IMG/VR virus record: IMGVR_UViG_3300040811_001959
Length of the DNA stretch: 64,000 nucleotides
Source: a virus
Taxonomy: Duplodnaviria; Caudoviricetes
Reading direction: 5' to 3' (one strand)
The translations under genes and the position numbers were made by a program. Positions within the stretch are counted from its first letter, which is position 1; each line of letters begins with the position of its first letter. The notes under the pieces were generated by a model. That model ran no database searches and was not told where the DNA came from. It worked only from the letters and a program-made list of their open reading frames with translations. This document shows positions 46,288 through 64,000 of the stretch, piece by piece.

Positions 46288-47847
46288 ATGGCGTATATTA
46301 TCAATACATATAACAACGCACAATTAGCAATTGTGCAGGATGGAACAATAGATCAAACTACTGATTTAAAATTGGTAGGAAAAAATTATGCAGGGTATGG
46401 AGAAATACAAAATGAAAATTTTGTTTTTTTATTAGAAAATTTTGCCGGCTTGACTGAACCACCGAAGGCAATTGTAGGGCAAATTTGGTTTGATACTGCA
46501 AATAGTAAATTAAAATTTTATGATGGATTTCAATGGAGGATTGCAGGCGGTGCATTTACTTCTGATGAACAACCTGCTGGATTAAGTATAGGAGATTTTT
46601 GGTGGGATACAAACAATGAACAATTATATGCATATAATGGAACTGAATGGATATTAATAGGACCTCAAGGTATTGGCGAAGGAGTAACGCAATTTCAAAG
46701 TAGAGAAATTAAAGATAGTGTAAGTCCATTTCCATTACGACCTGTTATAGTAAGTATTGTCGATGATGAAATTATACATATAATAAGTTCTATAGATTTT
46801 ACTATTCATCCTGACGAACAAACAAATTATCCTGGTTTTGATAAAATCCATCAAGGATTAACATTAAAAAATACGATTAATTCAACAAATGGAGTTACAA
46901 GCACTCAGCATAGATGGTGGGGAACAGCTTCAAACTCGGATAGATTAGATGGATTAACGGCAGATAAATTTATACAAATAGCAGATCCAAGTTTTGATTT
47001 TGAAGTAAGTTTTGCCGATGCTGGTATAAAGATTGGCAATGATAACGATTTACGGATTAGGATTGTAAATGATAATGTAGCTAATTTTGCAAATGAACAA
47101 GGCACAGAAATGATTTTCCAGGTGCTAGATGAAAATTTACAAATTGCAATGCCACTTAGATTTAAAGCTGATGCTGTTTTACCTGGATATGTAAGTAATT
47201 ATACGAACCCAAATATTTTTTCTGGAACAAGGAATGTAGATATTGGAGCAGACTCTAATAAATTTATCAATGTCTATGCAAATAATTTTCGAGGTGTTGC
47301 TGACAGTGCTGATTTATTAAAAGGAAGATATATAGATTCTAATAGTGATCCTGCAACAGAGTATATGGAAGCTAATGTGAGTCATGTTGCAAATACTAGA
47401 ACCATTGTAGTAAGAGATCATACAGGAACTATCCAAGGTACATTGTTTGATGGAACTGCTACAGCGGCACAATATGCAGATTTAGCTGAAAATTATGCAT
47501 CAGATAAAGATTATGAACCTGGAACAGTGCTTGTAATAGGAGGAACCGCAGAAGTAACAGAATCTGCTGAATATTGTAGCACAAAGGTTGCAGGCGTTGT
47601 ATCTACAAATCCTGCTTATCTAATGAATAAAGAATGTGCAGGTGTAGCAGTTGCTTTAAAAGGCAGGGTTCCTTGTAAAGTAGTTGGAAAAACGAAAAAA
47701 GGAGATTTTTTAATTACATCACACATTGTTGGAGTTGCAACGGCTGCTGATACAATGTCTGCAATGCCTCATTCGGCTTGTATAATAGGAAAATCACTAG
47801 AGGAAAAAAATTCAGACGAGATTGGGATTATTGAAATTTTTATATAA
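46288..47847 (+). CDS. Fibre/spike protein (paralog 3) with C-terminal intramolecular-chaperone (peptidase G2-like) domain
   Basis: Shared N-terminal module. C-terminus AQYADLAENY..D..YEPGTVLVIGG...VAGVVSTNPAYLMN...VALKGRVPCKVVG..KKGD.L.TS...GVA. Confidence 0.7.
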   Translation: MAYIINTYNNAQLAIVQDGTIDQTTDLKLVGKNYAGYGEIQNENFVFLLENFAGLTEPPKAIVGQIWFDTANSKLKFYDGFQWRIAGGAFTSDEQPAGLSIGDFWWDTNNEQLYAYNGTEWILIGPQGIGEGVTQFQSREIKDSVSPFPLRPVIVSIVDDEIIHIISSIDFTIHPDEQTNYPGFDKIHQGLTLKNTINSTNGVTSTQHRWWGTASNSDRLDGLTADKFIQIADPSFDFEVSFADAGIKIGNDNDLRIRIVNDNVANFANEQGTEMIFQVLDENLQIAMPLRFKADAVLPGYVSNYTNPNIFSGTRNVDIGADSNKFINVYANNFRGVADSADLLKGRYIDSNSDPATEYMEANVSHVANTRTIVVRDHTGTIQGTLFDGTATAAQYADLAENYASDKDYEPGTVLVIGGTAEVTESAEYCSTKVAGVVSTNPAYLMNKECAGVAVALKGRVPCKVVGKTKKGDFLITSHIVGVATAADTMSAMPHSACIIGKSLEEKNSDEIGIIEIFI

Positions 47848-47850
47848 ATA
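47843..47850 (+). promoter_or_regulatory. T4-type late promoter TATAAATA heading the fibre-to-glycosyltransferase operon
   Basis: Exact consensus overlapping the stop of paralog 3, followed by AGGAG and ATG 47875. Confidence 0.75.
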
Positions 47851-47874
47851 ACACATAATATAGGAGTTTTTTTG

Positions 47875-48804
47875 ATGGTCACACTTTCAACAGGAGTTTC
47901 ATCAGGAGGATCAATTGATGCAGCTAATTATAACTTATTACAAACTGAAGTAGCACAAATTTTAGGAACTGGGTCAGGCGATAAAGGGTATGGACAAGCA
48001 TTAAGTAGCAGTCAAGTCACAGCAAATGATATTGTTCAAGGTGTAGACGGAGACTTAGTTACAGCAGCACAAATGGATTACTTGCGATCTGATATTGAAA
48101 AATGTTGGAAGCATCAAGTTTCGACGGGATTTGCATTAGGTGATATATCTCCTGGAGATTGGATCACGGCTGGGTCAGCAAGTACAAGTGGCGCATATAA
48201 TCAATATTTTTCGTATGTGACCAGTATTGTTAATAACAGATTATTGTTAGCAACTGGACAGTATACTGATACTTTACAGCAGAATAATTCTGTTCCTATT
48301 AACTGGACATCGCAGAGATCTGCAGAATATACAGTAGATTTTGGAACTGCAGAAGCAATGCGATTCTTTTTTAACTCAGGCGGTCAAATTCAGTTTACAT
48401 GGTCAACAGGTAATTCAGGAACAGGGGCATCTGCTAGTAAAAATATAAGTTGGGCAAATTTCTTAAACACGGTTCCATACACGTCTACCTATGCAACATA
48501 TACAAATTATACTTCTAGTTGGGTAGCAAAAATAAACACTGGAGTAGGTGGTTCAGGGGTTTACGCTGAAAATAAAGCAATTCTATATGTAAGACTTATA
48601 GATAGTAATACAACCATTGCTTATCAATGGGTTTTACAAGATCTTGATACAGGCGACGATACTACGCCAAATGACGGTTGGAATTATAAAACTGATGAAC
48701 CAGTTACATTGCCTATTAATTGTAGACTAACAACTAGAACTGCAACTGGAAGTTATGTATCACGAACTGCACCAACTGCATCCAATACTTCTCCATGGTC
48801 TTAA
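47875..48804 (+). CDS. Putative virion structural protein (S/T/G-rich, fibre/whisker-like)
   Basis: 309 aa from ATG 47875; GYGQ.L.S..V, F.....RFFFNSGG.I patterns; late promoter and strong ribosome-binding site upstream. Confidence 0.55.
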   Translation: MVTLSTGVSSGGSIDAANYNLLQTEVAQILGTGSGDKGYGQALSSSQVTANDIVQGVDGDLVTAAQMDYLRSDIEKCWKHQVSTGFALGDISPGDWITAGSASTSGAYNQYFSYVTSIVNNRLLLATGQYTDTLQQNNSVPINWTSQRSAEYTVDFGTAEAMRFFFNSGGQIQFTWSTGNSGTGASASKNISWANFLNTVPYTSTYATYTNYTSSWVAKINTGVGGSGVYAENKAILYVRLIDSNTTIAYQWVLQDLDTGDDTTPNDGWNYKTDEPVTLPINCRLTTRTATGSYVSRTAPTASNTSPWS

Positions 48805-49152
48805 GTGGATGATAAATTACAAAAAGCATTAGAATTTTCTAATTATCTAATTACATTTAACGAACAAAAAACTGTATTACAAGAACATTTTAAAGATAAT
48901 ATAGTTTACTACTATAATGGCGCTAAGTTTACTATTACATTAGAATTGTTGAGTTATTGCAAATCTTGTGTTGATAGTAATAGGCATAGTGAAATTTTAG
49001 TTGATGATAATTGTATACCTTTTAAAATTGATATTGCACCATTTTATTTTTCTATTTTAAATTTGTATAATGATTCAAAAGAAAAGTATTTTGAAGAATA
49101 TTCAAAGTTGATTAAATCACGAACAGTAAAAACTATTGTAGACTATGAGTAA
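48805..49152 (+). CDS. Hypothetical protein (possible fibre assembly chaperone)
   Basis: 115 aa; GTG start immediately after the previous TAA. Function is inferred from position only. Confidence 0.5.
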   Translation: MDDKLQKALEFSNYLITFNEQKTVLQEHFKDNIVYYYNGAKFTITLELLSYCKSCVDSNRHSEILVDDNCIPFKIDIAPFYFSILNLYNDSKEKYFEEYSKLIKSRTVKTIVDYE

Positions 49153-49975
49153 AGGCATTTTACTCTTTGCTTTCAATAATAAAATTGATTATATAAAACA
49201 GGCATGTTTTTTTGCAATAACAGCAAAAGAATTTTTAAACTTACCTGTGAGCGTTGTAACTGATGATATTTCATATGCATCTAAGTTTGAAAAATATTTT
49301 GATAAAATAGTTCTTTTTGACAATCTAAAAGAAACTAATTATAAAGTTTATTTTAATGGTACAAGTTCTGAAAAATTAAATTTTAAAAATTCGGCTAGAT
49401 GCCATTCATATGATTTAACTCCTTATAATGAAACTTTAGTAATAGATACTGATGTATTATTAGGCAATAAGATTTTCCGCGAATGTTATAATTCAATTGG
49501 TGATTTTTTAATTTATGATATTGCTTATTTTTTAAATGATATTAAAGGCGCTGAAATAGAATATTGTAATGATGTAGGAATAAAGTTTTATTGGGCTACG
49601 GCATTTTTCTTTAGGAAAACTATAGAAAATAAAATATTTTTTGATTTACTAAAGCATATTCAAGATAATTGGAATCATTACAGATTTAATTATAAAATAG
49701 ATCAAACATATTTTAGGAATGATTATGCATTTAGTATTGCAATTCATATTATGAATGGTTTTGGTATAGGAAATTTTGCTAATCCTATGCCTGGAAAACT
49801 TTATTTTTTATCAGATAGAGAATATATTGTTGATTATAACAAAAATAGTTTTTTATTTTTATTACAAGATAAATTGACAGAACAATATTTTTTAAGTAGA
49901 ACGAAAAATTTTAATGTACATGTATTAAATAAATTCAGTTTAGATAAAATTGTAAATAAAAATATCAATGAATAA
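49145..49975 (+). CDS. GT-A fold glycosyltransferase (paralog A)
   Basis: GILLFA....DY.KQA......K..L.LPVS.VT, YDLTPYNETLVIDTD (DxD motif), FRND.AFSIA.H. Confidence 0.75.
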   Translation: MSKGILLFAFNNKIDYIKQACFFAITAKEFLNLPVSVVTDDISYASKFEKYFDKIVLFDNLKETNYKVYFNGTSSEKLNFKNSARCHSYDLTPYNETLVIDTDVLLGNKIFRECYNSIGDFLIYDIAYFLNDIKGAEIEYCNDVGIKFYWATAFFFRKTIENKIFFDLLKHIQDNWNHYRFNYKIDQTYFRNDYAFSIAIHIMNGFGIGNFANPMPGKLYFLSDREYIVDYNKNSFLFLLQDKLTEQYFLSRTKNFNVHVLNKFSLDKIVNKNINE

Positions 49976-50777
49976 TGGTTTTTTAATTTATGCATCAGGT
50001 ATTGACTACATAAAACAAGCCTATCTGTGTGGACTAAGTATAAAAAAATGTAATAATTATCCAATTTCTCTTGTTACAACAGATGATACTTATATTACAG
50101 AAAAAATTAAAAATTTTTTTGATAAAATTATTATTGTTCTACCGGATTTAAATCATCGTTATCATATCAGTAATAGGTCGTCTTTGTATTTTTTATCTCC
50201 ATATGAAAATACAATTGTTTTTGATAGTGATACAATTATATTAGAAAATTTTGATAAAAAATGGCAAGAATTATATGATCAAAATTTCATATACTATCCT
50301 ACAGATGCATTTACGTATAGAAATGTCAAGGTAACAAATGATTTTTATAGGAAAGCATTTGTTGATAATAATTTGCCTAATATTTACACAGGTTGTTATT
50401 TTTTTAAAAAATGTAATGAAAGCGATAAATTTTATAGCTTATTAAAAATAGTTGCAGATAATTGGCCTGAATTTTACAAAATATATTTAGGCAAGGATAA
50501 ATTAAATTTACCTAGTATGGATATTTTGACAGCTATTACAGATAAAATGTTAAAAGTAAATAGTATTAAACAAAAATCTTTTTTTAAATTTATTCATATG
50601 AAAAATAGAATTCAAGACTGGAAAATTAATGCAAATTCATGGTTAGATACAATTCCTTATTATATTAATGATGATAGTGAATTATTTGTCGGAAACCATA
50701 AACAGAGTGGAGTATTTCATTATGTTATTAATGATTTTTGTAACGATTTTATAATTGATACATTTGAAAAATTATGA
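49968..50777 (+). CDS. GT-A fold glycosyltransferase (paralog B)
   Basis: GFLIYA.G.DY.KQAYL..LSIK....YPISLVT, LSPYENTIVFDSD (DxD motif), LPNIYTG.YFFKK; clearly paralogous to the previous gene. Confidence 0.75.
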   Translation: MNNGFLIYASGIDYIKQAYLCGLSIKKCNNYPISLVTTDDTYITEKIKNFFDKIIIVLPDLNHRYHISNRSSLYFLSPYENTIVFDSDTIILENFDKKWQELYDQNFIYYPTDAFTYRNVKVTNDFYRKAFVDNNLPNIYTGCYFFKKCNESDKFYSLLKIVADNWPEFYKIYLGKDKLNLPSMDILTAITDKMLKVNSIKQKSFFKFIHMKNRIQDWKINANSWLDTIPYYINDDSELFVGNHKQSGVFHYVINDFCNDFIIDTFEKL

Positions 50778-51304
50778 ACTTTTACGTTTCTTATTTTGCA
50801 GATTCAAAAGAAGTCTGGCAATTTAGCAATGTACAGCCAGATAGTGATGATTTTATTGTAATTAATAAAATAGAAGATTTAGGAGGATTAGACGTAAGGA
50901 AAGATTGTATAACAAATTACAAAGTTAATTATGATAGTTTATTTGACAAATATTATATAACAAGTAAAGTAGATGTAAGTAAAAATACTAGTTTTATAGA
51001 AATTAAAGAATTTGTGTATGCAGATATATTTATTGTTCAAGATTTTAAATCAAATAAATGGAAATTTATTTTATCAGATCAATGCCAAATAGATGATAAT
51101 CCTGAAAAATTATATTTTTCAATATGTCAAAATAATAATCCTAATATTTTAATTAGATTAATTGAAATTAATTTTGATACTTTATATTATAGTAAAGAAA
51201 TATTATTTCCTTTTCAGTATGAAATTGAAAATGATAAGGAAAAAATAAGTATTTTTACGCACTATACTTCAATTAACTATTCTTATAAAAAAAATTATGA
51301 ATAA
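50774..51304 (+). CDS. Hypothetical protein
   Basis: 176-aa ORF overlapping both neighbours (translational coupling); no recognisable motif. Confidence 0.6.
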   Translation: MNFYVSYFADSKEVWQFSNVQPDSDDFIVINKIEDLGGLDVRKDCITNYKVNYDSLFDKYYITSKVDVSKNTSFIEIKEFVYADIFIVQDFKSNKWKFILSDQCQIDDNPEKLYFSICQNNNPNILIRLIEINFDTLYYSKEILFPFQYEIENDKEKISIFTHYTSINYSYKKNYE

Positions 51305-53843
51305 TATATTTAAAATTGCAGAACATGATGTAATTTTTTTGTCTTATGACGAACCAAATGCTGAAAAGAACTATGCAGATTTATTAACAAAAATACCCTG
51401 GGCTAAACGAATACACGGGGTACATGGTTCAGATTCTGCACATAAAGAATGTGCAAAGATAAGTGAAACAGAAAGATTAATAGTTATAGACGGTGATAAT
51501 ATTGTTGATAGTAATTTTGTAAACGAGGAAATAAAATTTAAAAAAAATGTTGATATAACAAAAAATGTAATCAGTTGGCCAGGTAGGAATATTATCAATG
51601 GGTTAATATATGGTAATGGTGGTATAAAATGTTGGCATAAGCAAACTTTACTAGATATAAAGACGCATGAAAATGCCGATCCAGATAACATACATGCACA
51701 GGTTGATTTTTGTTGGGATATAGAATATATTACAATGCAAAAGTCTATGAGTGTTGTAGAAAATAACTTTACACCTCAACAAGCATGGCGAGCTGGCTTT
51801 AGAGAAGGTGTGAAAATGTGTTTATTAGAAGGTGTTAAACCGTCTATAGAAGAATTTAATAAAATACATTGGAAAAATTTGCATAGATTATACATATGGT
51901 GTATGACAGGACAAGATGTAAAAAATGGAATATATGCTATATTAGGCGCTAGGCAAGGTTTGTACAAGACTATGTGTACCGATTGGAATTTTATAAATGT
52001 TAGAGATTTTGCTTATTTAAATTCTTTATGGAATGACGAATTAGCAGGTATAGATGAAGATAGTGCTGTTGATCTCGCACAACAGGTCGGAGATAAAATT
52101 AAACAGCATTTAGATATACCTATTTCTAGCTTGCCATTAAGCGTAGATCAAAGCAAATTTTATAAAACTACATTTACAAATAGCGTTAGACCAAAGCATC
52201 CTTCGTTAGCTACTGATAAAGAAACAGCAAGTTATGATATTGTAATGATAACATATAATGAATTAAATGGTACAGAAAATTACAATAGATTAAAAGACAG
52301 ATTTACAAATGTAAAAAGGATTCATAAAGTAAAAGGAATACATCAAGCTCATATAGCAGCCGCAGAGATATGCGAGACTGATATGATGTGGGTAGTAGAT
52401 GGTGATGCAGAAATTGTAGAAGATTTTTGTTTTGATTATATAGTTCCTGATAATGAAAAACAATTTGTACATGTTTGGCGCAGTCGAAATCCTATAAATG
52501 ATCTAGAATATGGGTATGGTGGAGTAAAATTGTTACCTACAGATATGACACGTAATATGGATTTATCAAAACCCGATATGACTACAAGCATAAGTAGACA
52601 TTTTAAGAAAATGAATGAAGTAAGTAATTACACTAGATTTAATACAGATGAATTTACTACCTGGCGTAGTGCGTTTAGAGAGTGTTGTAAGTTAGCAAGT
52701 GCAGTAATTGATAGACAAAAGCAAAAAGAAACAGATGAAAGATTAGAACGTTGGTGCAGTGATTATGGAAAAGATAGACCATTTGGAGAAGATGCAATCA
52801 AAGGCGCTAATCAAGGTAAAGAATATGGCATTAAAAATTGTGGAGATATTGAAGAATTATCAAAAATAAATGATTTTGATTGGTTAAAAATTAAATTTCA
52901 AGAATTTAACAATGTAAAAGTAGATAGTATAAATGTTCCTAAAGAAGTAAATAAAAATATTGAATTTTTACATGGTTTACACGAGTATTGTTTATATAAA
53001 TCTGAAAAAAAAGTTGCAGAAAATATAGATTATGTTTTAAATATTGCTTATTCTAATGATCCAGTTAGAGCTATTATAAATTATTTTTTGCCTAAAGCAA
53101 TGTATAATTCTTTAGAGCAAGGAACGTTAATTGATGATTTAATTTTATACTGTTTGACTAATAATGATGGAAAAAACACTAGATATTTTAGATTTGTGAG
53201 AGATTTTGTAAAAAAAGGAAAAAATTTAAAAATTTTGTCTGATGCATTTAGTCGTAGTCAAATGCGTAGTAAAATTTGGTTAGTTGACGAATTATCTAAA
53301 ATTAATAAAAATTTTGATAACATAGTTTTATTAGCAGGATGGTATGGTCAGTTAATTGATTTATTTGGAAATCAAAGTATAAATGAAATTACTTTTGCAA
53401 AATTTAGAAATATAGAACTTGACAAAGATTGTTGTTTAGAAAGTGATTACAATTTTAATTTACGTAGATTAGAGGGTCATAAAGTTAAAGCAATAAATGT
53501 AGATATTAATAATCTTACCCTACATGAAAATGGTTATGAATGGGAAATTGAAAATTTTAAAACTGAAGAAAAATATTTAGAGAAATTTTTACCAGATTTA
53601 ATAATTAACACAAGCTCAGAACATATGACAACAGAATGGTTCAATCAAATACGTTTTAAAAAATGGACAAAAAAACCTCTGGTTGTTATCCAAAATAATA
53701 ATTTTTTCGGAATACCTGAACATGTAAACTGTGTACATAGTATTGATCATATGAAAAAAGTATTTCCTATGGAAAAAATATTATTCGAAGGAGAATTACA
53801 ACTTAAAGGATATAAACGTGTTATGTTAATAGGGTATGCATGA
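51297..53843 (+). CDS. Fusion of two tandem GT-A-like domains and a C-terminal SAM-dependent methyltransferase-like domain
   Basis: Internal duplication: DVIFLSYDE..AH..CA..SET...IDGDN..YGNGGIK..WRAGFREGVK versus DIVMITYNE..AH..AA..CET..VDGDA..YGYGGVK..WRSAFRECCK. C-terminus has IVLLAGWYG...DLIINTSSEHM...QNNN (Rossmann methyltransferase-like). Confidence 0.7.
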   Translation: MNNIFKIAEHDVIFLSYDEPNAEKNYADLLTKIPWAKRIHGVHGSDSAHKECAKISETERLIVIDGDNIVDSNFVNEEIKFKKNVDITKNVISWPGRNIINGLIYGNGGIKCWHKQTLLDIKTHENADPDNIHAQVDFCWDIEYITMQKSMSVVENNFTPQQAWRAGFREGVKMCLLEGVKPSIEEFNKIHWKNLHRLYIWCMTGQDVKNGIYAILGARQGLYKTMCTDWNFINVRDFAYLNSLWNDELAGIDEDSAVDLAQQVGDKIKQHLDIPISSLPLSVDQSKFYKTTFTNSVRPKHPSLATDKETASYDIVMITYNELNGTENYNRLKDRFTNVKRIHKVKGIHQAHIAAAEICETDMMWVVDGDAEIVEDFCFDYIVPDNEKQFVHVWRSRNPINDLEYGYGGVKLLPTDMTRNMDLSKPDMTTSISRHFKKMNEVSNYTRFNTDEFTTWRSAFRECCKLASAVIDRQKQKETDERLERWCSDYGKDRPFGEDAIKGANQGKEYGIKNCGDIEELSKINDFDWLKIKFQEFNNVKVDSINVPKEVNKNIEFLHGLHEYCLYKSEKKVAENIDYVLNIAYSNDPVRAIINYFLPKAMYNSLEQGTLIDDLILYCLTNNDGKNTRYFRFVRDFVKKGKNLKILSDAFSRSQMRSKIWLVDELSKINKNFDNIVLLAGWYGQLIDLFGNQSINEITFAKFRNIELDKDCCLESDYNFNLRRLEGHKVKAINVDINNLTLHENGYEWEIENFKTEEKYLEKFLPDLIINTSSEHMTTEWFNQIRFKKWTKKPLVVIQNNNFFGIPEHVNCVHSIDHMKKVFPMEKILFEGELQLKGYKRVMLIGYA

Positions 53844-55127: not shown

Positions 55128-55130
55128 TAT

Positions 55131-56399: not shown

Positions 56400-56417
56400 T
56401 AATTAGGAATATCAATT

Positions 56418-57856: not shown

Positions 57857-57876
57857 TTTGAAAAATTAATATAGGA

Positions 57877-58737
57877 ATGGATATAAAAATTTTAAAAAAA
57901 AGATTAAACGAACAATTTTATAAAGAGTATGACAGATATATCTTGCCTTATTATAAATTAACAGGAATAAAAGAAGATAAACAAAAAAGTTTTCGTGAAT
58001 ACATGCATACTTTTGTTGATAATAAGGTTGATTTAGTTAGATATGATAATTTAGATTGGTATCCAGATAATCGTTATGTTCGAACCAGATCGTATTATAA
58101 TCAGTGGATAAATTTTTTTGCAGCAAATGATTTAAACTTTTTTAAAGTTTTTAAAGATGAAGCTTGTCATAGGCACGCAAGGCAACATATAGAACTTTCC
58201 TGTGACTTATTAACAAATGAACCTACAGTTTTTCCTGTACGTATATTACCTGAGAGAGTTCATCCAGGTAATACTTTGATTAGGGCTTGTAAATTTTTGC
58301 AAAAGCCTTTGACTGTTTTAAGGGTGAGTTCTAAAGAATTTGTTGATAATGGAATAATAATTAAAGAATGTAAGTCTTTAGATGATATACAGCAATGTTA
58401 TGGCGATAAAAAAATCTTTGCTTGGTTTTATAACAAACAAAAAACGTATGGTTTACAAGTAGTGGTATTTCATTCAAATTGGACACAATTTGATGAAAAT
58501 GGAAATTTAAGATGGAGAAGTGATTTTAAATTAGATGGAAAATCAATATATCCTTTGCACAAATTTTTAGATTATTTAATTGATCAAACAAATTCTTTAA
58601 AAAAATGCCAAAAAATACAGTTTACTTACAGTGGTAAAAATTATACGTTAAACAATCCTATTAATAAACAATTGTCTAGAAAGATTTTTTTAGATGCTAT
58701 TAAATGGGGAAATCAAAATTTAACATCAAATTGGTAA
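57877..58737 (+). CDS. Hypothetical protein, HPG-x-T motif (paralog 2)
   Basis: Motif FP.....RVHPGNTLIRACKFL and downstream K..L..I...Y.....F..FY.K....LQ, similar to the preceding ORF. Confidence 0.6.
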   Translation: MDIKILKKRLNEQFYKEYDRYILPYYKLTGIKEDKQKSFREYMHTFVDNKVDLVRYDNLDWYPDNRYVRTRSYYNQWINFFAANDLNFFKVFKDEACHRHARQHIELSCDLLTNEPTVFPVRILPERVHPGNTLIRACKFLQKPLTVLRVSSKEFVDNGIIIKECKSLDDIQQCYGDKKIFAWFYNKQKTYGLQVVVFHSNWTQFDENGNLRWRSDFKLDGKSIYPLHKFLDYLIDQTNSLKKCQKIQFTYSGKNYTLNNPINKQLSRKIFLDAIKWGNQNLTSNW

Positions 58738-58781
58738 CTTAACTTTTTATATTATCACAAATTAATTAACAAATTGTATTA

Positions 58782-58792: not shown

Positions 58793-58796
58793 CAGT

Positions 58797-60188
58797 ATGG
58801 CAAAAGTATCTAATACATTTTGTATCCTTCCATGGGTACATTTAAGCACAAGACCAGACGGCTCTATGAGAGTTTGTTGCACAGCAAATGCAAGTTCAGT
58901 TGGACCTACTAATGATAAAGAATATGGAGGACAAATTGGTATTTTAAAAACTGAAGATGGCAAACCTAATAATTTAAATGTAAGTGATTTTGTAAGCAGC
59001 TGGAACAGTACATATATGAAAAATGTACGAAAACAAATGTTAAATGGAGAAATACCACCTAGTTGTATAAAATGCTTCAAGGAAGAAGAAGCAGGACATA
59101 ATAGCAAAAGAATGTGGGAAACACGGTATTGGAGCGAAAGAGTAAATGTTGATAAATTAATTGCAGATACAAATGCGGACGGAAGTGTTCCTCCACAACT
59201 TACATATATTGATTTGAGATTTGGAACTAAATGTCAACTTGCTTGTGTGATGTGTTCACCACATGATAGTTCTGGTTGGATAAATGATTGGCAAGCAATA
59301 TATCCGCAAATAGAAAATGTTTCTTTAAAAGAAACTATGCAATGGAAAGACAAAGGTAGTTATAATGGTAGTAGTTATAACTGGCATAAAAATAATCCAA
59401 TATTTTGGGATCAGTTCTATGAACAAATTCCTAATATGCAACAAATATATTTTGCAGGAGGCGAGAGTTTAATCATTGAAGAACATTATGATATATTAGA
59501 ACAGTGTATAAAACAGGGTTATGCAAAAGATTTAGAATTACGTTATAATTCAAATGGGGTCGAATGGAGAGATGATTTATTTGATCTATGGAAAGAATTT
59601 AAATTAGTAAGATTTCATTATAGTGTTGATAGCATTAAAGAAATGAATGACTATATTAGATATCCTAGTCAATGGAATAGAACTGAAGAAGTATTTCATT
59701 TGTTAGATACTGAGACTAGCAATAATGTAGAAGTTACAATAGCTTGTGCGGTCCAAGCTTTAAATATATTTTATATACCTGATTTTATAAAATGGAAACT
59801 ACAGCAAAAATTTAACAAAGTAAATATGTGGCCTTTTGGTGCAGGTGGTGTAAATTATCATTTTGTTTATCATCCTCCGCATCTAAACGTTAAAATATTG
59901 CCAAAATGGTTTAAAGAAAAATGTCGTAAAAAGTATGAAGAGTTTTATCCCTGGTGGGAAGAGAACTGGGAATTAGGAATTCCTGCTTGGTATAAAGGAA
60001 AAGTTCAATATGCTGATTGGCGTAATGCCGGTTACGGAATTAGTAGATTAGAAGGAATGCTTCAATTTATGGAGTCGGAAGATTGGAGTTTAAGATTGCC
60101 AGAAACACGAGAATTTTTACAAAAGTGTAATAAACAAAGGAATTTAGATTTTAATACAATCTTTCCAGACATGGATAAGGTGTTTTAA
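58797..60188 (+). CDS. Radical SAM enzyme with N-terminal twitch/SPASM-like domain
   Basis: N-terminal FCILPWVHL....DG..RVCC ... C.KCF.EE..G..S.R, then IDLRFGTKCQLACVMC, FAGGES, YNSNG and SVDS. Confidence 0.9.
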   Translation: MAKVSNTFCILPWVHLSTRPDGSMRVCCTANASSVGPTNDKEYGGQIGILKTEDGKPNNLNVSDFVSSWNSTYMKNVRKQMLNGEIPPSCIKCFKEEEAGHNSKRMWETRYWSERVNVDKLIADTNADGSVPPQLTYIDLRFGTKCQLACVMCSPHDSSGWINDWQAIYPQIENVSLKETMQWKDKGSYNGSSYNWHKNNPIFWDQFYEQIPNMQQIYFAGGESLIIEEHYDILEQCIKQGYAKDLELRYNSNGVEWRDDLFDLWKEFKLVRFHYSVDSIKEMNDYIRYPSQWNRTEEVFHLLDTETSNNVEVTIACAVQALNIFYIPDFIKWKLQQKFNKVNMWPFGAGGVNYHFVYHPPHLNVKILPKWFKEKCRKKYEEFYPWWEENWELGIPAWYKGKVQYADWRNAGYGISRLEGMLQFMESEDWSLRLPETREFLQKCNKQRNLDFNTIFPDMDKVF

Positions 60189-60210
60189 AAAATTAAAGAT
60201 TAAGGAAAAA

Positions 60211-61023
60211 ATGTTTATTTTTCGTAAAAAGGATAAAAATGTCCCAGATAAAAATGTCTCAGATATAAAGTATCTAGATAAAAAAATTAGGATATATGGA
60301 TGTAGTTTTACTTATGGAGTATGGCAAAAATATACAAAAGATGGAGCCCCACTATCACCACACACTGAGTCTTGGACAGGTTTTTTTGCAAAATTACTTC
60401 CTGAATACCAAATTATAAATTATGCTACACCGGGTTGCAGTGTAAAATGGGTGACTTATTTGTTTAATAAATTTAAAAAAAAATATCCAAATGATATACA
60501 CATTACTCAAATACCACTTTTAGGAAGGCATAATTGGTGGGAAGATGATTTATCTATTGAAGATATATACACGCCTTACAAGTATGAAGATATACCAAAT
60601 TTAACAAAACATCGGCGAAATCACCGATATAGTCACCAACTATCTCCTTCAATACTTGAAAATTCTCAGCATTTTATACGCCCGTTTCGTATATGGACTA
60701 AACAAGAAATATCACGCTGGGGCAAAATGTATTTTGGTGGATTGGTTAATTTGGATCTTGAATTTATGGTTTGGTCATATTTTTTATATGATCATGCTGA
60801 TTTTGCTTTTCATCAAAAAGGCCTCCAAGATTTTCCTGGCATGCTGAAAAGCGATAGTGATTATAAAAAACAAAATTTTATTTCTTTTTGGAATGCAATT
60901 GAACAAGAGCCAAGCTTAACAACTTACCTAGATTATATAGTAGACGATGGACATCATTTAAATCCAGTAGCATTAGAATTTCAAGCTAATTGGGTATATC
61001 AAAATATAAAAAATTTATTATAA
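60211..61023 (+). CDS. SGNH/GDSL-hydrolase-fold protein (acyltransferase/esterase-like)
   Basis: Block I IYGCSFTYG, block II NYATPGCS and block V DDGHHLN (DxxH). Confidence 0.7.
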   Translation: MFIFRKKDKNVPDKNVSDIKYLDKKIRIYGCSFTYGVWQKYTKDGAPLSPHTESWTGFFAKLLPEYQIINYATPGCSVKWVTYLFNKFKKKYPNDIHITQIPLLGRHNWWEDDLSIEDIYTPYKYEDIPNLTKHRRNHRYSHQLSPSILENSQHFIRPFRIWTKQEISRWGKMYFGGLVNLDLEFMVWSYFLYDHADFAFHQKGLQDFPGMLKSDSDYKKQNFISFWNAIEQEPSLTTYLDYIVDDGHHLNPVALEFQANWVYQNIKNLL

Positions 61024-61025
61024 TT

Positions 61026-61931
61026 ATGGAAAGAGAAAAGCGAAGATATCCTTTTGTACGGATAAACAATGAAGAAGAAATTGCGAATCATAAACATTAT
61101 TTTTTAGATTACGAGCATCATCTAGTAGATTTAAAAAATATTAATGTAATTCATGATATAGCATCTAAGTTACAGCCTGTTCGCACAGAAGAGGATGTGT
61201 TTACTAAGGAAGAACTAGATTGGATTTATGGTTTTGCATTTAGTAGGTGTAACACTGTAAGGAATAATGATAATGGAACAATTTTTGTAAGTGGCAATTT
61301 ACAAGGAGTTTATGAAAAATTTAAAGATAAAATTAATTACCTAATTCCAGGAGCAGATAAATCTCCAGTAGTAGGAGGAAATTATTTTATTACTCCTACT
61401 CAGTATGGGTTGCATAATGACAGTACAAGAGAAAATGACTGGAAAGATAGTTTAAAATTTATGGCAATAGATGGTAATATTAGGAAATATGTACCATGGA
61501 GAAATATAATTATTCCAATTTTTACAGGACCAGCTGATATCGAATCGCATGCTATATTTTTTAAACAAAGGCACATTGATTATGCTCATGTATATCATCA
61601 TGGCGTGAATCCTAACAAGAAAATTGCAACAACGTATCCAATTGTAAAAGATTATAGCACAATTAAGTTCCATTTATTAGGAAATCTTATACAAGAAGGA
61701 GAAAAAAATCTTGTTCCTTACGATAAAGAACATCATGAAAAATATTTATATTATACTCCCTATAAAAGATTAACAGGACTCGAAGTAGAATCAACAGTAA
61801 TGTGGAAACCTGGTTGCCCTATTGTTTTTGATGCTTTTCAACTACACGCAACTAATAAAGGATTTGAAAATAAAATGTGGGATTTAAAAATGGGGTTACT
61901 ATTAACATTTTTACGTAAAGTTGATATATAG
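61026..61931 (+). CDS. 2OG-Fe(II) oxygenase-like protein
   Basis: Likely start ATG 61026. HxD motif YGLHND, distal His in FDAFQLHAT, and terminal K.GLLLTF strand. Confidence 0.6.
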   Translation: MEREKRRYPFVRINNEEEIANHKHYFLDYEHHLVDLKNINVIHDIASKLQPVRTEEDVFTKEELDWIYGFAFSRCNTVRNNDNGTIFVSGNLQGVYEKFKDKINYLIPGADKSPVVGGNYFITPTQYGLHNDSTRENDWKDSLKFMAIDGNIRKYVPWRNIIIPIFTGPADIESHAIFFKQRHIDYAHVYHHGVNPNKKIATTYPIVKDYSTIKFHLLGNLIQEGEKNLVPYDKEHHEKYLYYTPYKRLTGLEVESTVMWKPGCPIVFDAFQLHATNKGFENKMWDLKMGLLLTFLRKVDI

Positions 61932-61935
61932 TCAA

Positions 61936-64000
61936 ATGAATAATATTAATGAAAAAATAATTTGTCCTGCAGTATGGGATCATTTATGTGTTAATACAAA
62001 TGGCCATAACAGATTATGTTGTAATTCTAAAACTAGAGATTCCGATACATTTTTGTACAATCTTGATAATCATTGGAACAAATATAGACTTGATATTAAA
62101 CAGCAAATGTTAGCAGGTATTAAACCAAAAGAATGCAATTCTTGTTGGGATAAAGAGAAGAATAATATTACTAGTTTAAGAGAAACATTAGTAGAAAGAT
62201 ATAAGTTTTATAATTGGTGGGATGATTTTGTAAACTCTATTAACATTCATAAAAAGTATCCTACAGAATGGGATTTAAAATTAGGAAATTTTTGTAATCT
62301 TAGTTGTAGAATGTGTAACAGTTATAGCAGCAGTAAATATGCAACTGAATTAAAAAAAATATACAAAGAAACTGGATATGATTATGGTATAGATCCAAAT
62401 GAAAGATATTTTGAACAATTAGAATGGTATAATTCAGATCTTTTTTATGACATTTTTAAAAAATCAGTAGATAATGGTTTAAAAGCCATTAAATTTACAG
62501 GAGGAGAACCATTGATGGTGCCTAATGTAAAAAAAATGATAGATTATTGCATTAAAACCAATGTAGCTAAAAATGTAGAATTAAAAATTATTACCAATGC
62601 TACGCTTTTAGATGATGAATGGGTTGATAAATTTAAGAATTTTAAAGATGTGATTTTAAATTGTTCAGTTGATGGAGTTGGTGATATTTTTGAGTATATA
62701 AGACATCCTGCAAGTTGGGATACAGTTTATAAAAATTTGAATAATCTTAAAGAAATAAAAACAAAAAATATAGTTTTTACAATTTCTTTCACTATGCAAA
62801 TTTATAATATATTGCAATTACAAAAAATGATTATGTTAAGGAGAGAATTAAATGCACAAACTGTAAATGTAATACCTTTATCTGAGCCAAATTATTTTGA
62901 TGCAAAAAATGCTCCGTTATTTTTAAAAAAACAAGCTATAGAACAAATTGATGGTATAGTAACAAAAAATCATTTCGAAGAAAGATTTGTAAACAATGCC
63001 AGAAGTAAAATTAACCAACAAGCTGATTCTAATGTTAACCAACTTTACAGTAAGTTAGTAAGTATTACCGAGCTTAAAGATAAGTATAAAAATCAAGATA
63101 TATATAGTACTGAATTAGGTGAGGTTTTTTTGAAAATAAAACAAATTGCAGAAAATGTAGATACAAATACTAAAAAAATTGGGAAGACATTTTGTGTCTT
63201 ACCTTGGACTCATATAGCAACAAACTCAAATGGTAATCTTAGAGTTTGTTGTAATTCTGTATCCGGTAAAAATTTAATAAGGAAACCTAATGACGAGCCT
63301 TATAAGATATATAAGAAGGGAGAAGTAGTAGAAGCGTGGAATAGTGATTACTATAAAAATTTGAGGAAGCAATTTTTAAATGACGAAGTGCCTGACATAT
63401 GCACAAGATGTTTTGATTTAGAAAAAAATGGCGTAAAAAGTCCAAGAAATGGATGGAATGAAAATTACTATGACGAAAATGCATTATATGAAGAAAATGC
63501 ACCATTCAAAATAAAATATGTAGATATAAGATTAGGAAATCTTTGCAATTTAAAATGTAGGATGTGTAATCCCTATTCTAGTAATCAATGGGTAAAAGAA
63601 TGGAAATTATTAGAAAAAGATTTTTTAGATACTGAGTTAGATAGACTTGAACAATTGAACTGGCCAGAAAAATCTGCATTATGGGATAATTTAAAATTAG
63701 TTGCAAACGATGTTGTTATGATTTATCTTACTGGAGGAGAACCTACTATAATAAAAGAACAACATAAATTATTAGATTATTTTTTAGATAACAATTTAGC
63801 AAAGAATGTTAAATTAAAATATAATACTAATCTAACAAATATTCCGCATCATTTATTAGATAAATGGAAAAAATTTAAAAATGTTCAAGTAAATTGTTCC
63901 ATTGATGCTATTGGATCATTGGATAGATACATTAGGTATCCGAGTGATTGGAATACTATTGCAGAAAATTTTCAAATTGTAAAAAATTTAGAAAATTGCA
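61936..64000 (+). CDS. Tandem double twitch-radical SAM fusion protein; runs off the window's right edge
   Basis: Not in the track. Translated by hand with no stop from ATG 61936 to 64000 (>688 aa). Module 1 has ICPAVW.HL..RLCC and CNLSCRMC (62293-62316) with FTGGEP. Module 2 has FCVLPWTHI..RVCC (from 63190) and CNLKCRMC (63544-63567) with LTGGEP. Confidence 0.9.
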   Translation, partial: MNNINEKIICPAVWDHLCVNTNGHNRLCCNSKTRDSDTFLYNLDNHWNKYRLDIKQQMLAGIKPKECNSCWDKEKNNITSLRETLVERYKFYNWWDDFVNSINIHKKYPTEWDLKLGNFCNLSCRMCNSYSSSKYATELKKIYKETGYDYGIDPNERYFEQLEWYNSDLFYDIFKKSVDNGLKAIKFTGGEPLMVPNVKKMIDYCIKTNVAKNVELKIITNATLLDDEWVDKFKNFKDVILNCSVDGVGDIFEYIRHPASWDTVYKNLNNLKEIKTKNIVFTISFTMQIYNILQLQKMIMLRRELNAQTVNVIPLSEPNYFDAKNAPLFLKKQAIEQIDGIVTKNHFEERFVNNARSKINQQADSNVNQLYSKLVSITELKDKYKNQDIYSTELGEVFLKIKQIAENVDTNTKKIGKTFCVLPWTHIATNSNGNLRVCCNSVSGKNLIRKPNDEPYKIYKKGEVVEAWNSDYYKNLRKQFLNDEVPDICTRCFDLEKNGVKSPRNGWNENYYDENALYEENAPFKIKYVDIRLGNLCNLKCRMCNPYSSNQWVKEWKLLEKDFLDTELDRLEQLNWPEKSALWDNLKLVANDVVMIYLTGGEPTIIKEQHKLLDYFLDNNLAKNVKLKYNTNLTNIPHHLLDKWKKFKNVQVNCSIDAIGSLDRYIRYPSDWNTIAENFQIVKNLENC

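Follow-up and report, generated by a model that had tools for sequence, protein, structure and literature searches.

An uncultured marine jumbo phage carries, directly behind its tail-fibre genes, a cassette that may well serve to glycosylate and tailor a fibre-associated virion protein in the cytoplasm late in infection, with a logic closest to that of the chlorovirus protein A064R; we hold this reading with moderate confidence. The cassette is common in aquatic phages and, to our knowledge, no earlier study has addressed a fibre-linked cassette of this kind. The earlier note on the window (the whole stretch of 64,000 nucleotides analysed here) had proposed a late pathway that makes a tailored sugar for virion proteins. 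Sugar building and transfer, and the link to the fibre operon, have stood up: the former is supported by four GT-A domains and recurring nucleotide-sugar enzymes, and the latter by synteny in other phages, the position of the element TATAAATA and consistent co-occurrence. The proposed chemistry and acceptor were not substantiated.

The cassette and its link to the tail-fibre genes

The phage appears, from its sequence, to belong to a T4-core jumbo phage lineage; its portal is about 52% identical to those of PA5oct, Atu_ph07 and their kin. The cassette lies in a same-strand (+), overlap-coupled run of genes that extends from 47843 to the window end and continues for at least 8.6 kb past it. Between 48804 and 55131, neighbouring genes either abut or share 4-8 nt, intergenic gaps after 55131 are at most 59 nt, and a terminator scan of the + strand yielded no convincing candidate. 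The fibre genes and the conserved core are organized as follows.

42141..47847, + strand: three paralogous tail-fibre genes (42141, 44255 and 46288) with PHROG tail-fibre/collar matches and a Pfam Collar domain
47843-47850, + strand: TATAAATA, T4-type late-promoter-like element overlapping the stop codon of the fibre gene 46288-47847
47875..48804, + strand: 47872-family protein, 309 aa, candidate fibre-associated virion protein and glycan acceptor
48805..49152, + strand: 115-aa conserved protein that always precedes the GT8-like pair
49145..49975, + strand: GT8/glycogenin-like GT-A glycosyltransferase 1 (DxD = DTD), 36% identical to RsoM2USA ORF353
49968..50777, + strand: GT8/glycogenin-like GT-A glycosyltransferase 2 (DxD = DSD), paralogue of 49145, 32% identical to RsoM2USA ORF352
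50774..51304, + strand: variable 176-aa protein, matched in only 24 of 81 loci
51297..53843, + strand: 848-aa fusion of a GT-A (1-310), a paralogous GT-A (311-548) and a candidate MT-like (about 620-848) domain
53840..54067, + strand: 75-aa protein, whose gene always comes immediately before the 54060 radical SAM gene
54060..55127, + strand: radical SAM protein with CxxxCxxC and a Cys-rich SPASM/twitch-like C-terminal region (PHROG 21308, E 2e-18)

The core order (three fibres, 47872 family, 115-aa protein, two GT8-like proteins, GT-A, one or more radical SAMs, GT-A, MT-like, 75-aa protein, SPASM radical SAM) recurs in about 70 of 80 IMG/VR loci, with proteins only 25-60% identical, and in the cultured Ralstonia jumbo phage RsoM2USA (ORF355-347), the sole match among 50,697 phage records. 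In the relatives and in RsoM2USA, the three parts of 51297 are separate genes with radical SAM genes interposed. When the 47872 family served as an independent search seed, the cassette followed in 19 of 19 informative loci, meaning those with enough downstream DNA. The three fibre proteins share an N-terminal domain of about 90 aa, which also aligns with RsoM2USA ORF355, and their genes form the upstream portion of the conserved module. Among the small proteins, 48805 is present in 80 of 81 loci (mean column identity 60%; 37% identical to RsoM2USA ORF354), and the slot of 50774 is filled in relatives by proteins of different sizes, including the product of a 432-aa gene in the related locus L076. 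The 75-aa protein is very strongly conserved (mean column identity 77%) and may be a partner or substrate of the adjacent radical SAM enzyme.

The element TATAAATA is followed by the ribosome-binding site TAGGAG and the ATG at 47875. The motif is not enriched across the window (9 observed vs 19 expected), yet its position is meaningful. The minus strand has a second copy at 8685, about 40 nt ahead of a further structural gene that has an identical ribosome-binding site; in related loci, 32 of 50 + strand copies are found no more than 80 nt ahead of a fibre or cassette gene, against a background expectation of about 0.003 per upstream window, and 20 of these 32 precede 47872-like genes, divergent relatives included. 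The cassette is probably joined to the tail-fibre module and co-transcribed late with the fibres. In one metatranscriptome, the fibre genes, 47872 and 54060 are represented by nearly identical fragments, a weak signal for which DNA carry-over is possible.

The 47872-family protein, which is found immediately after the fibres in 73 of 81 loci, contains 24% Ser+Thr. Its AF2 model (pLDDT 78) consists of an N-terminal helical bundle and a C-terminal beta-sandwich without a clear fold match, and Pfam and PHROG searches returned no match. RsoM2USA ORF355, which has a fibre-type N-terminus, weakly matches the 47872 domain (E 0.003) and, together with the synteny, suggests a structural role. The weakness of this match and the lack of a recognizable structural fold or family count against our main reading, as does the finding that the RsoM2USA counterpart is not among the ten abundant virion bands of that phage. 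Mass spectrometry places the products of ORF356 and ORF361, which neighbour ORF355, in the virion (PMC8504454).

Several claims of the earlier note on this region can thus be judged. The overlapping, coupled ORFs followed by a close co-oriented run agree with our coordinates and layout, and the late promoter at 47843 is indeed represented by TATAAATA, with its position conserved before 47872-like genes. The "structural gene" call for 47872 is backed by synteny and the weak ORF355 match, not by a family or fold match. The 16 kb that the note viewed as a single pathway comprises a conserved core, 47872-55127, and a lineage-variable extension.

Glycosyltransferases and tailoring enzymes

The profile of the 49145/49968 family matches glycogenin (E 7e-6) over about 105 residues of the N-terminal nucleotide-binding half, including the DxD motif, and glycogenins are its only PDB matches. 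The motif is invariant in the family (D101 and D103 in 49145). Single members show weak Glyco_transf_8 and Mannosyl_trans3 matches, with GT8 below the Pfam threshold.

The two GT-A domains of 51297 are paralogous to each other (31% identity, E 1e-19), which brings the cassette to four GT-A domains, all with an invariant DxD. The AF2 model of this protein (pLDDT 90) aligns with many GT-A enzymes (VIA-align Z 8-10; 94 chains), and the closest solved folds detected by Foldseek include ThuS, SunS and domain 1 of PBCV-1 A064R. The matches to peptide-directed glycosyltransferases are no better than those to other GT-A enzymes, which counts against the main reading. The C-terminal MT-like domain has no PDB or Pfam match, with only weak language-model and Spermine_synth hints.

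Beyond the core, the window contains the following genes.

55131..56399, + strand: short AsnB-type glutamine amidotransferase, 422 aa, with a Cys2 nucleophile and an SGGVDS PP-loop
56418..57089, + strand: CTP_transf_3 cytidylyltransferase of the CMP-Kdo / CMP-nonulosonate synthetase family (Pfam 38.1 bits vs cut-off 22.6)
57047..58737, + strand: two distant paralogues, 57047-57856 and 57877-58737 (22% mutual identity, E 4e-9)
58797..60188, + strand: N-terminal-twitch radical SAM protein (NF033640, 410 bits vs cut-off 170)
60211..61023, + strand: predicted SGNH/GDSL-like (DUF6071-like) esterase or acyltransferase fold, from Atlas feature and structure leads, with GxS and DxxH-like motifs
61026..61931, + strand: predicted 2OG-Fe(II) oxygenase-like (DUF6445-like) protein, from Atlas leads, with an HxD...H pattern
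61936..64000, + strand: double N-terminal-twitch radical SAM protein (NF033640, 566 bits vs cut-off 170, two stretches)

The complete 61936 protein comprises 806 aa and extends past the window end, where it is followed, all on the + strand, by genes for a 461-aa protein, an AspH-like 210-aa protein, a 389-aa radical SAM protein, and 412-aa and 205-aa proteins. The core enzyme 54060 scores 27.2 bits against Pfam Radical_SAM, just under the cut-off. The amidotransferase exceeds the Pfam cut-offs for both GATase_7 (41.5 bits) and Asn_synthase (36.9 bits); this protein and 56418, which weakly matches PseF and KdsB (NCBIfam), are far below the NCBIfam equivalog cut-offs. The amidotransferase, the cytidylyltransferase, 57047, 57877 and 60211 have no counterparts in the 80 related loci. 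The AsnB and a 57877-like gene reappear inside the same cassette in a second lineage: an AsnB copy that is 69% identical is present in L180-L182 and adjoins the 57877-like gene in L180. The 57047/57877 family is rare (5 clusters). In the related loci L012 and L014, homologues of 61026 come after radical SAM genes of the 58797-like type. Nucleotide-sugar enzymes recur, with CTP_transf_3 here, UDP-glucose/GDP-mannose dehydrogenase in L076 and UDPGP in a bacterial array.

With respect to the enzymes, the earlier note fared well. Both of its GT-A transferases are glycogenin/GT8-like by the profile match and the invariant DxD; all four radical SAM modules were recovered, three of them as NF033640 (58797 and both halves of 61936); and the Pfam scores uphold the AsnB-type amidotransferase and, at the level of the cytidylyltransferase family, the CMP-sugar synthetase. 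In its GT-GT-methyltransferase fusion, the duplicated GT-A domain is borne out by paralogy and the AF2 fold, and the methyltransferase is not, having no PDB or Pfam match. The SGNH and 2OG-Fe(II) calls find support in Atlas leads and sequence motifs; a Pfam search with 60211 gave no match.

Proposed mechanism and alternative explanations

We infer the acceptor, the sugars, the order of the steps and the role of the radical SAM enzymes as follows. The two retaining-type, glycogenin/GT8-like GT-A enzymes and their 115-aa partner would place the priming sugar on a phage protein. The recipient would most likely be either the Ser/Thr-rich 47872-family protein, whose gene lies just before theirs, or the fibres. 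Elongation of the glycan would fall to the duplicated GT2-like GT-A domains and capping to the MT-like domain. The radical SAM proteins (one SPASM-type, and the NF033640 N-twitch array), 2OG/AspH oxygenases, SGNH protein, AsnB and cytidylyltransferase would provide unusual sugars or tailor them, or would introduce additional changes into the protein. No protein reaches transmembrane-like hydrophobicity (maximum KD19 1.56) and every cassette protein is predicted to be soluble, so that glycan assembly would be cytoplasmic, on a folded or folding virion protein ahead of virion assembly, as chloroviruses do with their capsid protein. We know of no precedent in protein glycosylation for such large radical SAM arrays; the chemistry may therefore differ, which counts against this reading.

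The radical SAM enzymes could instead be the centre of a RiPP-like maturation of a phage protein (47872 family or 53840), in which the SPASM/N-twitch enzymes and AspH/P4H-type oxygenases would cross-link, epimerise or hydroxylate, with glycosylation secondary or one of several modifications. The SPASM/twitch enzymes score against many peptide maturases (NCBIfam), AspH-type and 2OG-FeII_Oxy_3-type oxygenases are present in the cluster and in relatives, and the related locus L180 has up to about 10 radical SAM genes; the conservation of 53840 and its fixed place upstream of 54060 point the same way. We nevertheless consider such maturation rather unlikely, given that 53840 is conserved uniformly, with no leader/core split and no Cys, that no RRE, protease or exporter was recognized, and that glycosyltransferases and nucleotide-sugar enzymes constantly accompany the arrays, including those in bacteria. 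It also seems unlikely that the product is a glycan or glycoconjugate located elsewhere than on the virion, either through remodelling of the host envelope (receptor masking or superinfection exclusion), as the earlier note had suggested as an alternative, or as a cytoplasmic or secreted polysaccharide. Surface-glycan loci typically encode AsnB-type and cytidylyltransferase enzymes, and both families match here; moreover, the GT-A/MT-like/radical SAM sets of Bdellovibrionota are found among GT2 genes with a TMEM260/PMT-like membrane protein, which suggests envelope glycan synthesis in those bacteria and counts against glycosylation of a virion protein. Against host-surface remodelling, neither the 47.8-64 kb region nor the genes seen beyond it encode a membrane protein, lipid-carrier transferase, priming phosphotransferase, flippase, polymerase or ligase, and the cassette has a late-type promoter and shows strict linkage to the fibre genes and the 47872 family.

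Clusters for aminoglycoside and nucleoside antibiotics have a similar set of enzymes, and BlsE-type and other sugar-acting radical SAM families are among the weak NCBIfam matches, so a small-molecule natural product, for example sugar- or nucleoside-derived and made by radical SAM, glycosyltransferase, amidotransferase, cytidylyltransferase, oxygenase and acyl-transfer steps, merits consideration. The cluster has no transporter or resistance gene, is conserved beside structural genes with a late promoter, and its GT8-like pair and 48805 always come after the 47872 family, all of which makes this explanation improbable. Radical SAM and amidotransferase enzymes also occur in some base-modification pathways, and the DNA-glycosylating glycosyltransferases of phages are diverse according to work cited in PMC12619734. 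Decoration of phage DNA bases by the transferases and tailoring enzymes is nonetheless very improbable: the cluster has no nucleotide-metabolism, hydroxymethylase, kinase or DpdA-like gene, the cassette is part of the late structural operon and occurs together with fibre genes, and the bacterial homologues belong to glycan-type loci.

Related systems

Glycosylation of a fibre-associated virion protein would have its closest analogue in PBCV-1 A064R, a soluble cytoplasmic GT, GT, methyltransferase protein that builds and caps the capsid glycan (PMC9614988). Like 51297, A064R is a virus-encoded multi-domain transferase with the GT-GT-MT order, and a Foldseek search with the phage GT-A domain recovers domain 1 of A064R (probability 0.99-1.0, E about 1e-3), with a sequence identity of only about 15%. 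Domain 2 of A064R comes from another GT family, whereas the two phage domains are mutually paralogous; its methyltransferase is established and that of 51297 is only a candidate; A064R is expressed early, in contrast to the late-type promoter of the phage cassette; and the host here is bacterial. The GT8-like enzymes and the many radical SAMs are absent from chloroviruses.

We know of no radical SAM arrays in the virion glycosylation of mycobacteriophages. Glycosyltransferases of these phages, an unrelated lineage, modify virion proteins at C-termini, with capsid and tail tube rather than fibres as the reported targets (Freeman et al. 2023 as cited in PMC12619734). SunS and ThuS, top Foldseek matches of the phage GT-A, combine a GT-A with a helical domain and glycosylate peptides directly; many other GT-A enzymes score just as well as these marginal matches (E 6.5e-4, Z about 9), and the phage cassette has no glycocin-like precursor or exporter. 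In Skp1 hydroxyproline glycosylation, a prolyl hydroxylase acts together with soluble glycosyltransferases that include a glycogenin-like GT8 enzyme. The phage system is similar in its soluble enzymes, in the glycogenin match, which is confined to about 105 residues and falls under the Pfam GT8 threshold, and in the prolyl-hydroxylase-type 2OG oxygenases in the cassettes of relatives; self-glycosylation and hydroxyproline acceptors are features of the reference systems. Surface- and flagellin-glycan loci (WbpS/PseA amidotransferases, NeuA/PseF/KdsB cytidylyltransferases) share Pfam-level families with the cassette. They differ in that the phage amidotransferase and cytidylyltransferase miss the equivalog level and are lineage-variable, outside the conserved core, and neither the window nor the 8.6 kb beyond it yielded a NeuB/PseI-type synthase.

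Bdellovibrionota chromosomes carry the enzymatic half alone, within arrays of 13-25 NF033640 genes. There, 58797-like proteins are 60-62%, 54060-like proteins 43-49%, and GT-A and MT-like proteins 34-40% identical to those of the phage, and AspH-like, PP-loop amidotransferase-like, 2OG and nucleotide-sugar enzymes are encoded alongside. Unlike the phage cassette, these arrays are surrounded by GT2 genes and a membrane protein gene and have no fibre genes, 47872 family, 48805 or GT8-like pair. The GT8-like genes, 48805 and 47872 are found on phage-type contigs only, whereas the GT-A/MT-like/radical SAM half is also present in Bdellovibrionota, a distribution that would fit two joined modules, one for acceptor and priming that is specific to phages and one for elongation and tailoring that is shared.

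Genomic setting and layout of the cassette

The window carries T4-type core genes, namely those for the portal, gp46/47-like nuclease subunits, the baseplate wedge and hub, and three tail-fibre paralogues. Among the head genes, the ORF at 3371-3862 (-) matched only phrog_30607, a PHROG of unknown function. The portal shares about 52% identity with the portals of the PA5oct, Atu_ph07 and Phosso group of jumbo phages, and a contig of ~274 kb carries one of the cluster proteins; therefore, the window belongs to an uncultured T4-core jumbo phage. Near-identical DNA was found in metagenomes of estuaries, seawater and marine plankton, sampled in at least 15 studies. A megablast search of the whole region gave no match among GenBank phages, and the nearest virus record, a 16-kb fragment, lacks the cluster. 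Long contigs from independent sequencing runs span both the junction of the fibre, 47872 and GT8-like genes and the 54.7-64 kb stretch, so the arrangement is not an assembly artefact.

The cluster part of the window is low in G+C (about 28%), and every ORF of any size from 47872 to the window end lies on the + strand. The gene junctions from 48804 to 55131 abut or overlap by 4-8 nt, and the gaps further on do not exceed 59 nt. Coupled genes on the same strand continue beyond the window end, starting with the remainder of an 806-aa double radical SAM protein and also encoding a 461-aa protein, an AspH-type hydroxylase, another radical SAM protein and two more genes. Single-protein searches of Pfam, PHROGs and NCBIfam yielded nothing for 11 of the 16 ORFs, and none of the cluster proteins contains a transmembrane-like segment. 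A search of IMG/VR with the first GT8-like protein identified at least 158 related contigs, of which 80 loci were kept; all window proteins were then compared with the kept loci by tblastn, and matches were counted out of 81 loci.

Genes of the cassette (start or coordinates, strand, description) and loci with a tblastn match
47875-48804, +, 309-aa protein of the 47872 family; 73/81
48805, +, 115-aa protein; 80/81
49145, +, first GT8-like protein; 81/81
49968, +, second GT8-like protein; 81/81
50774, +, variable 176-aa slot protein
51297, +, 848-aa fusion of two GT-A domains and a methyltransferase-like (MT-like) domain; 72/81
53840-54067, +, 75-aa protein; 16/81 (many contigs stop before the distal genes)
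54060, +, radical SAM protein; 22/81 (many contigs stop before the distal genes)
55131, +, 422-aa AsnB-type protein; no match
56418, +, CTP_transf_3 family cytidylyltransferase; no match
57047 and 57877, +, paralogue pair; no match
58797, +, NF033640 radical SAM protein; 53/81
60211, +, SGNH/DUF6071-like protein; no match
61026, +, 2OG/DUF6445-like protein
61921, +, ORF near the window end; 61/81
61936, +, radical SAM protein with two NF033640 halves

The earlier note had placed a consensus late promoter at 47843, and the comparison with other copies bears this out. The T4-type element TATAAATA is present there, overlapping the stop codon of the third fibre gene and followed by a ribosome-binding site and the ATG at 47875. 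Across the whole window the octamer is depleted, with 9 copies observed vs 19 expected. A second copy is intergenic (8685-8692, minus strand), ~40 nt upstream of a structural 843-aa gene (6114-8645), and is followed by a TAGGAG ribosome-binding site at a spacing identical to that of the 47843 copy. In the 81 related loci, 32 of the 50 + strand copies are located at most 80 nt upstream of a fibre or cassette gene, the background being about 0.003 per upstream window, and 20 of the 32 directly precede 47872-like genes; in several relatives in which the downstream protein is only 30-40% identical, the octamer is again found at the end of the preceding fibre gene, at its stop codon. From its placement, we take the copy at 47843 to be a real late-type promoter element. 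A perfect octamer precedes only 17% of the 47872-like genes, and transcription of the cassette by read-through from the fibre operon is possible. Fragments nearly identical to the fibre genes, 47872 and 54060 occur in a marsh metatranscriptome; these contig-level RNA fragments are compatible with expression of the cassette but do not prove it.

Predicted glycosyltransferases, radical SAM proteins and tailoring enzymes

Taken singly, 49145 and 49968 have no Pfam match. The profile of their 56-member family matches only glycogenins in the PDB (19 sequences, E 7e-6 to 4e-5), with an alignment limited to residues 4-107, that is, the nucleotide-binding half including the DxD motif; D101 and D103 are invariant in the 56 sequences and align with the glycogenin DxD. 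Two of the 56 members singly match Pfam Glyco_transf_8 (best E 5e-4) and six weakly match Mannosyl_trans3, in all cases under the curated cut-offs. Thus classified by profile, the two proteins appear to be CAZy GT8/glycogenin-like, and retaining transfer to a protein side chain is a prediction only.

The two GT-A domains of the 848-aa protein 51297 are paralogues (31% identity, E 1e-19). The AF2 model of domain 1 (pLDDT 90, pTM 0.89) shows a GT-A fold followed by a C-terminal helical domain. VIA-align matched this model to 94 PDB chains with Z of at least 8, all of which are GT-A or nucleotidyltransferase folds (best match: Z 10.2, rmsd 3.0, 137 residues), and Foldseek ranked ThuS and SunS (peptide S-glycosyltransferases), RmlT and TarP (teichoic-acid enzymes) and PBCV-1 A064R (domain 1) at the top; GT2 clusters in AFDB match the model as well. 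The DxD motif takes the form DGD, with D65 and D67 invariant in 34 sequences spanning both domains. At the sequence level, 51297 itself has no Pfam GT2 match, Glycos_transf_2 or Glyco_tranf_2_3 is detected in only 4 of 34 relatives (E 0.009-0.05), and a profile search of PDB sequences with the GT-A domain gave nothing.

The C-terminal domain of 51297 contains conserved AGWYG (G-rich), FDID, INTSxEH and LQSNN motifs along with conserved acidic residues. It has no match in the PDB by profile search or, for 11 members, in Pfam, and two large homologue searches, one of them started from a bacterial member, led to no named family; the MT-like family comprises at least 5,918 proteins, every named one of which is annotated as hypothetical. 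Two weak, independent hints make a class I methyltransferase fold plausible and, on balance, the assignment that we favor: Methyltransf_31 appears in 21% of one Atlas cluster, and one of 11 members matches Spermine_synth (E 0.003). Of the GT-GT-methyltransferase fusion proposed previously, the paired glycosyltransferase part is thus upheld by the DGD motif, paralogy and predicted fold, whereas the methyltransferase part is not borne out by any PDB or Pfam match. In most relatives, including L005, L013, L076 and ORF350, ORF348 and ORF347 of the Ralstonia phage RsoM2USA, the GT-A, GT-A and MT-like domains are separate proteins, with radical SAM genes between them; they are fused here and in a few other loci (L012, L014, L086), and here the radical SAM genes are located downstream. 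Judging from this comparison of gene orders, the 848-aa ORF is the product of gene fusion and rearrangement inside the cassette.

The four radical SAM modules named in the earlier note were all recovered, one in 54060 and the others in 58797 and both halves of 61936. The latter two proteins score 410 and 566 bits, respectively, against NF033640 (cut-off 170), an N-twitch radical SAM family for which our literature search found nothing and which, to our knowledge, has no known function. Both have the CxxxCxxC motif and an N-terminal Cys cluster; C146, C150, C153, C90 and C93 are invariant in 17 family sequences, and the N-terminal C9, C27 and C28 in a closer set of seven. The 54060 protein contains the CxxxCxxC motif and matches PHROG 21308 (E 2e-18), scoring 27.2 bits against Pfam Radical_SAM, under the cut-off of 29.5; its C-terminus is Cys-rich and has no Pfam SPASM match. 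Always immediately upstream of the 54060-type gene is 53840, whose 75-aa product (mean column identity 77%) exceeds every enzyme of the cassette in conservation and contains neither Cys nor a leader/core pattern; the two may form a partner-enzyme or substrate-enzyme pair.

The AsnB-type protein 55131 has the MCG N-terminus, with the Ntn nucleophile Cys2, and the SGGVDS motif of the PP-loop, and matches GATase_7 (41.5 bits, cut-off 25) and Asn_synthase (36.9 bits, cut-off 21). It is short, and reaches only 76.7 bits against TIGR01536 (cut-off 267), with the remaining equivalogs far below their cut-offs; the family assignment made earlier holds, but the NCBIfam equivalogs give no orthology to asparagine synthetase, WbpS or a lasso cyclase. 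The case of the putative CMP-sugar synthetase 56418 is similar, in that membership in CTP_transf_3 is secure (38.1 bits vs the Pfam cut-off of 22.6) but the PseF, KdsB or NeuA specificity is not recovered, no equivalog cut-off being reached (PseF 26.9 bits, cut-off 205.7; KdsB ~24 bits, cut-off at least 193). A complete nonulosonic-acid pathway was rejected because neither the window nor the following 8.6 kb showed a NeuB/PseI-type synthase. Neither 60211 nor 61026 has a Pfam match. Language-model and structure leads, together with visible motifs, suggest that 60211 is SGNH/DUF6071-like (Atlas features score 0.96 against viral SGNH/DUF6071 clusters, and a low-confidence Atlas model gives TM about 0.5 against Lipase_GDSL clusters; GCS and DDGHH motifs) and that 61026 is 2OG/DUF6445-like (Atlas DUF6445 and 2OG-FeII_Oxy_3 clusters, score 0.92-0.96, TM 0.44-0.49; HND and a distal His). 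The 57047 and 57877 proteins are distant paralogues from a rare family.

Distribution among phages and bacteria

The conserved gene order among the relatives starts with a phrog_11259 protein, three fibre paralogues, one or two 47872-like genes, 48805 and the two GT8-like genes, proceeds through the variable slot, a GT-A gene, one to five N-twitch radical SAM genes, the second GT-A gene and the MT-like gene, and ends with 53840 followed by the 54060-type radical SAM gene. The genes for the AsnB-type protein, the cytidylyltransferase, 57047, 57877 and 60211 are unmatched in the related loci and therefore represent a lineage-variable extension. A search seeded with the AsnB-type protein revealed a second lineage (L180-L182) that has the same cassette with about 10 radical SAM genes, and in which a 57877-like gene, the AsnB gene (69% identity) and a 58797-like radical SAM gene (80% identity) occur together. 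Insertions in other relatives include a UDP-glucose/GDP-mannose dehydrogenase, a DUF6071 protein and a 2OG-FeII_Oxy_3 oxygenase. In the related locus L076, a 2OG-FeII_Oxy_3 protein of the prolyl-hydroxylase type (8971-9591) is encoded between the 47872-like genes and 48805, and a UDP-glucose/GDP-mannose dehydrogenase (17199-18422) just before the second GT-A gene.

Among 50,697 GenBank phage records, the cassette is present only in the cultured Ralstonia jumbo phage RsoM2USA, in which ORF354-ORF347 encode, in the same order, the 48805 protein, the GT8-like pair, GT-A, an N-twitch radical SAM protein, GT-A and the MT-like protein, at 26-41% identity and all annotated as hypothetical. ORF355 of this phage, likewise annotated as hypothetical, has a fibre-type N-terminal domain and a weak match to the 47872 domain (E 0.003).

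A scan with the GT-A profile of one genome per prokaryotic species detected 76 loci that fall into three groups. The first consists of contigs with fibres and the full cassette under assorted MAG names, which are almost certainly mis-binned jumbo-phage contigs; among them are L082/L090 (PBPT01000016.1, 335 kb, 'Neomarinimicrobiota'), L084/L085 ('Rickettsiales'), L088 ('Bifidobacterium'), L092 ('Fischerella') and L119 ('Pacearchaeota'). In the third group, Rhodobacterales and a few others, the GT-A gene is found alone. The second group comprises Bdellovibrionota chromosomes with the GT-A domain(s), the MT-like domain, and 58797-like (60-62% identity) and 54060-like (43-49%) radical SAM proteins; these chromosomes carry no fibre, 47872, 48805 or GT8-like genes. 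Because the Bdellovibrionota share the enzyme genes without the phage half, the elongation and tailoring half is common to these phages and predatory bacteria, and the 47872/48805/GT8-like half is phage-specific and linked to the fibres. The neighbors in one Halobacteriovoraceae locus are three GT2 genes and genes for another radical SAM protein, an AspH-like protein, an FAD amine oxidase, a PP-loop (QueC/Asn-synthase-like) protein and a weakly PMT/TMEM260-like membrane protein.

Three Bdellovibrionota genomes contain 13, 15 and 25 NF033640 matches, many in tight arrays (G006:C1:745-776 kb, L189 and L190; G002:C9, L191 and L192; G003:C1, L193). One 30-kb stretch holds ~14 copies, interspersed with genes for a UDPGP-type sugar-1-phosphate nucleotidyltransferase and a 2OG oxygenase and with many genes that have no Pfam match or were unscanned. 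These arrays are an uncharacterised bacterial system in its own right.

Candidate acceptor and predicted function

Since GT-A domains are always present and nucleotide-sugar enzymes recur, the cassette is read most economically as a glycan pathway. A virion protein is favored as the acceptor by four features, namely that all of the proteins are soluble, that lipid-carrier machinery is absent, that the promoter is of the late type, and that the cassette is strictly linked to the fibre genes and the 47872 family. We give glycosylation and tailoring of virion proteins about an even chance. The radical SAM genes could also be the center of a protein-maturation system, which overlaps the main reading and has to accommodate the constant GT-A genes; as an account in its own right, it is unlikely. 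A glycan elsewhere than on the virion, although homologues of several of the enzymes lie apart from any fibre gene in the Bdellovibrionota, has a smaller chance still, the four features pointing to the virion. The linkage to the fibres has equally to be weighed against a small molecule as the product, which we consider improbable, and against modification of DNA, which is very improbable; the remainder is left to something else.

For virion-protein glycosylation, the 47872-family protein is the first candidate acceptor. An independent seed from a 47872 subfamily recovered 25 loci, and the cassette is present in all 19 that have enough downstream DNA; a tblastn search of cultured phages with the 47872 protein gave no match. 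The family has a Ser+Thr content of 16-27%, and the model combines a helical N-terminus with a C-terminal beta-sandwich, as is common in fibre tips. Fold searches with the model returned only generic beta-sandwich or helical matches (Z at most 6.7), and hence we claim no fold family. A Ser/Thr-rich C-terminal tail as the glycosylation site of the family was discarded because the C-terminal enrichment is inconsistent across members.

More tentatively, the cassette might be viewed as a phage 'post-translational tailoring factory' in which a phage-specific priming module (the 47872-family fibre-tip protein, 48805 and the glycogenin-like glycosyltransferases) is joined to a tailoring module shared with Bdellovibrionota. 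The NF033640 arrays would carry out successive radical reactions on the glycan bound to the protein, or directly on the protein, to give a hypermodified fibre surface that varies between lineages and either determines host range or protects the virion. If true, this would provide the first function for NF033640 and the first radical-SAM-dependent virion modification.

We know of very few systems in which virions are glycosylated by phage-encoded enzymes, those of mycobacteriophages and, among giant viruses, chloroviruses. In both, virion glycosylation affects antigenicity and stability. Virus-encoded virion glycosylation is thus a kind already known, and the NF033640 radical SAM array is the unprecedented component. 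No description of the cassette was found in the literature searched; a cyanophage paper that mentions radical SAM proteins and glycosyltransferases deals with a different gene set. A WbdA/WbdD-like polymerase-terminator logic was dismissed given the lack of lipid-carrier machinery and the separate genes for the three domains in most relatives. The closest worked-out precedent is the chlorovirus PBCV-1, whose A064R, a soluble three-domain protein (GT, GT, methyltransferase), builds and caps a capsid-protein glycan (PMC9614988). The similarity of A064R to 51297 amounts to 15% identity over ~130 residues of domain 1 only, with no homology beyond the GT-A fold, and domain 2 of 51297 is paralogous to domain 1, unlike in A064R (PMC9614988).

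The cassette is abundant in estuarine and marine metagenomes and almost absent from cultured phages (one among 50,697 records). If the fibre proteins are modified, this is relevant to how marine jumbo phages recognize their hosts and to how variable their receptor-binding structures are. The cassette also offers a route to the function of NF033640, a family with 13-25 copies per genome in predatory Bdellovibrionota. RsoM2USA is a cultured system in which the prediction is directly testable, and two neighbors of its cassette, ORF356 and ORF361, have been detected in virions by mass spectrometry (PMC8504454). In the window, a single 5,521-aa ORF (24936-41501, +) separates the baseplate wedge gene from the fibre module; the counterpart position in RsoM2USA is occupied by ORF361, a virion protein of 2,541 aa.
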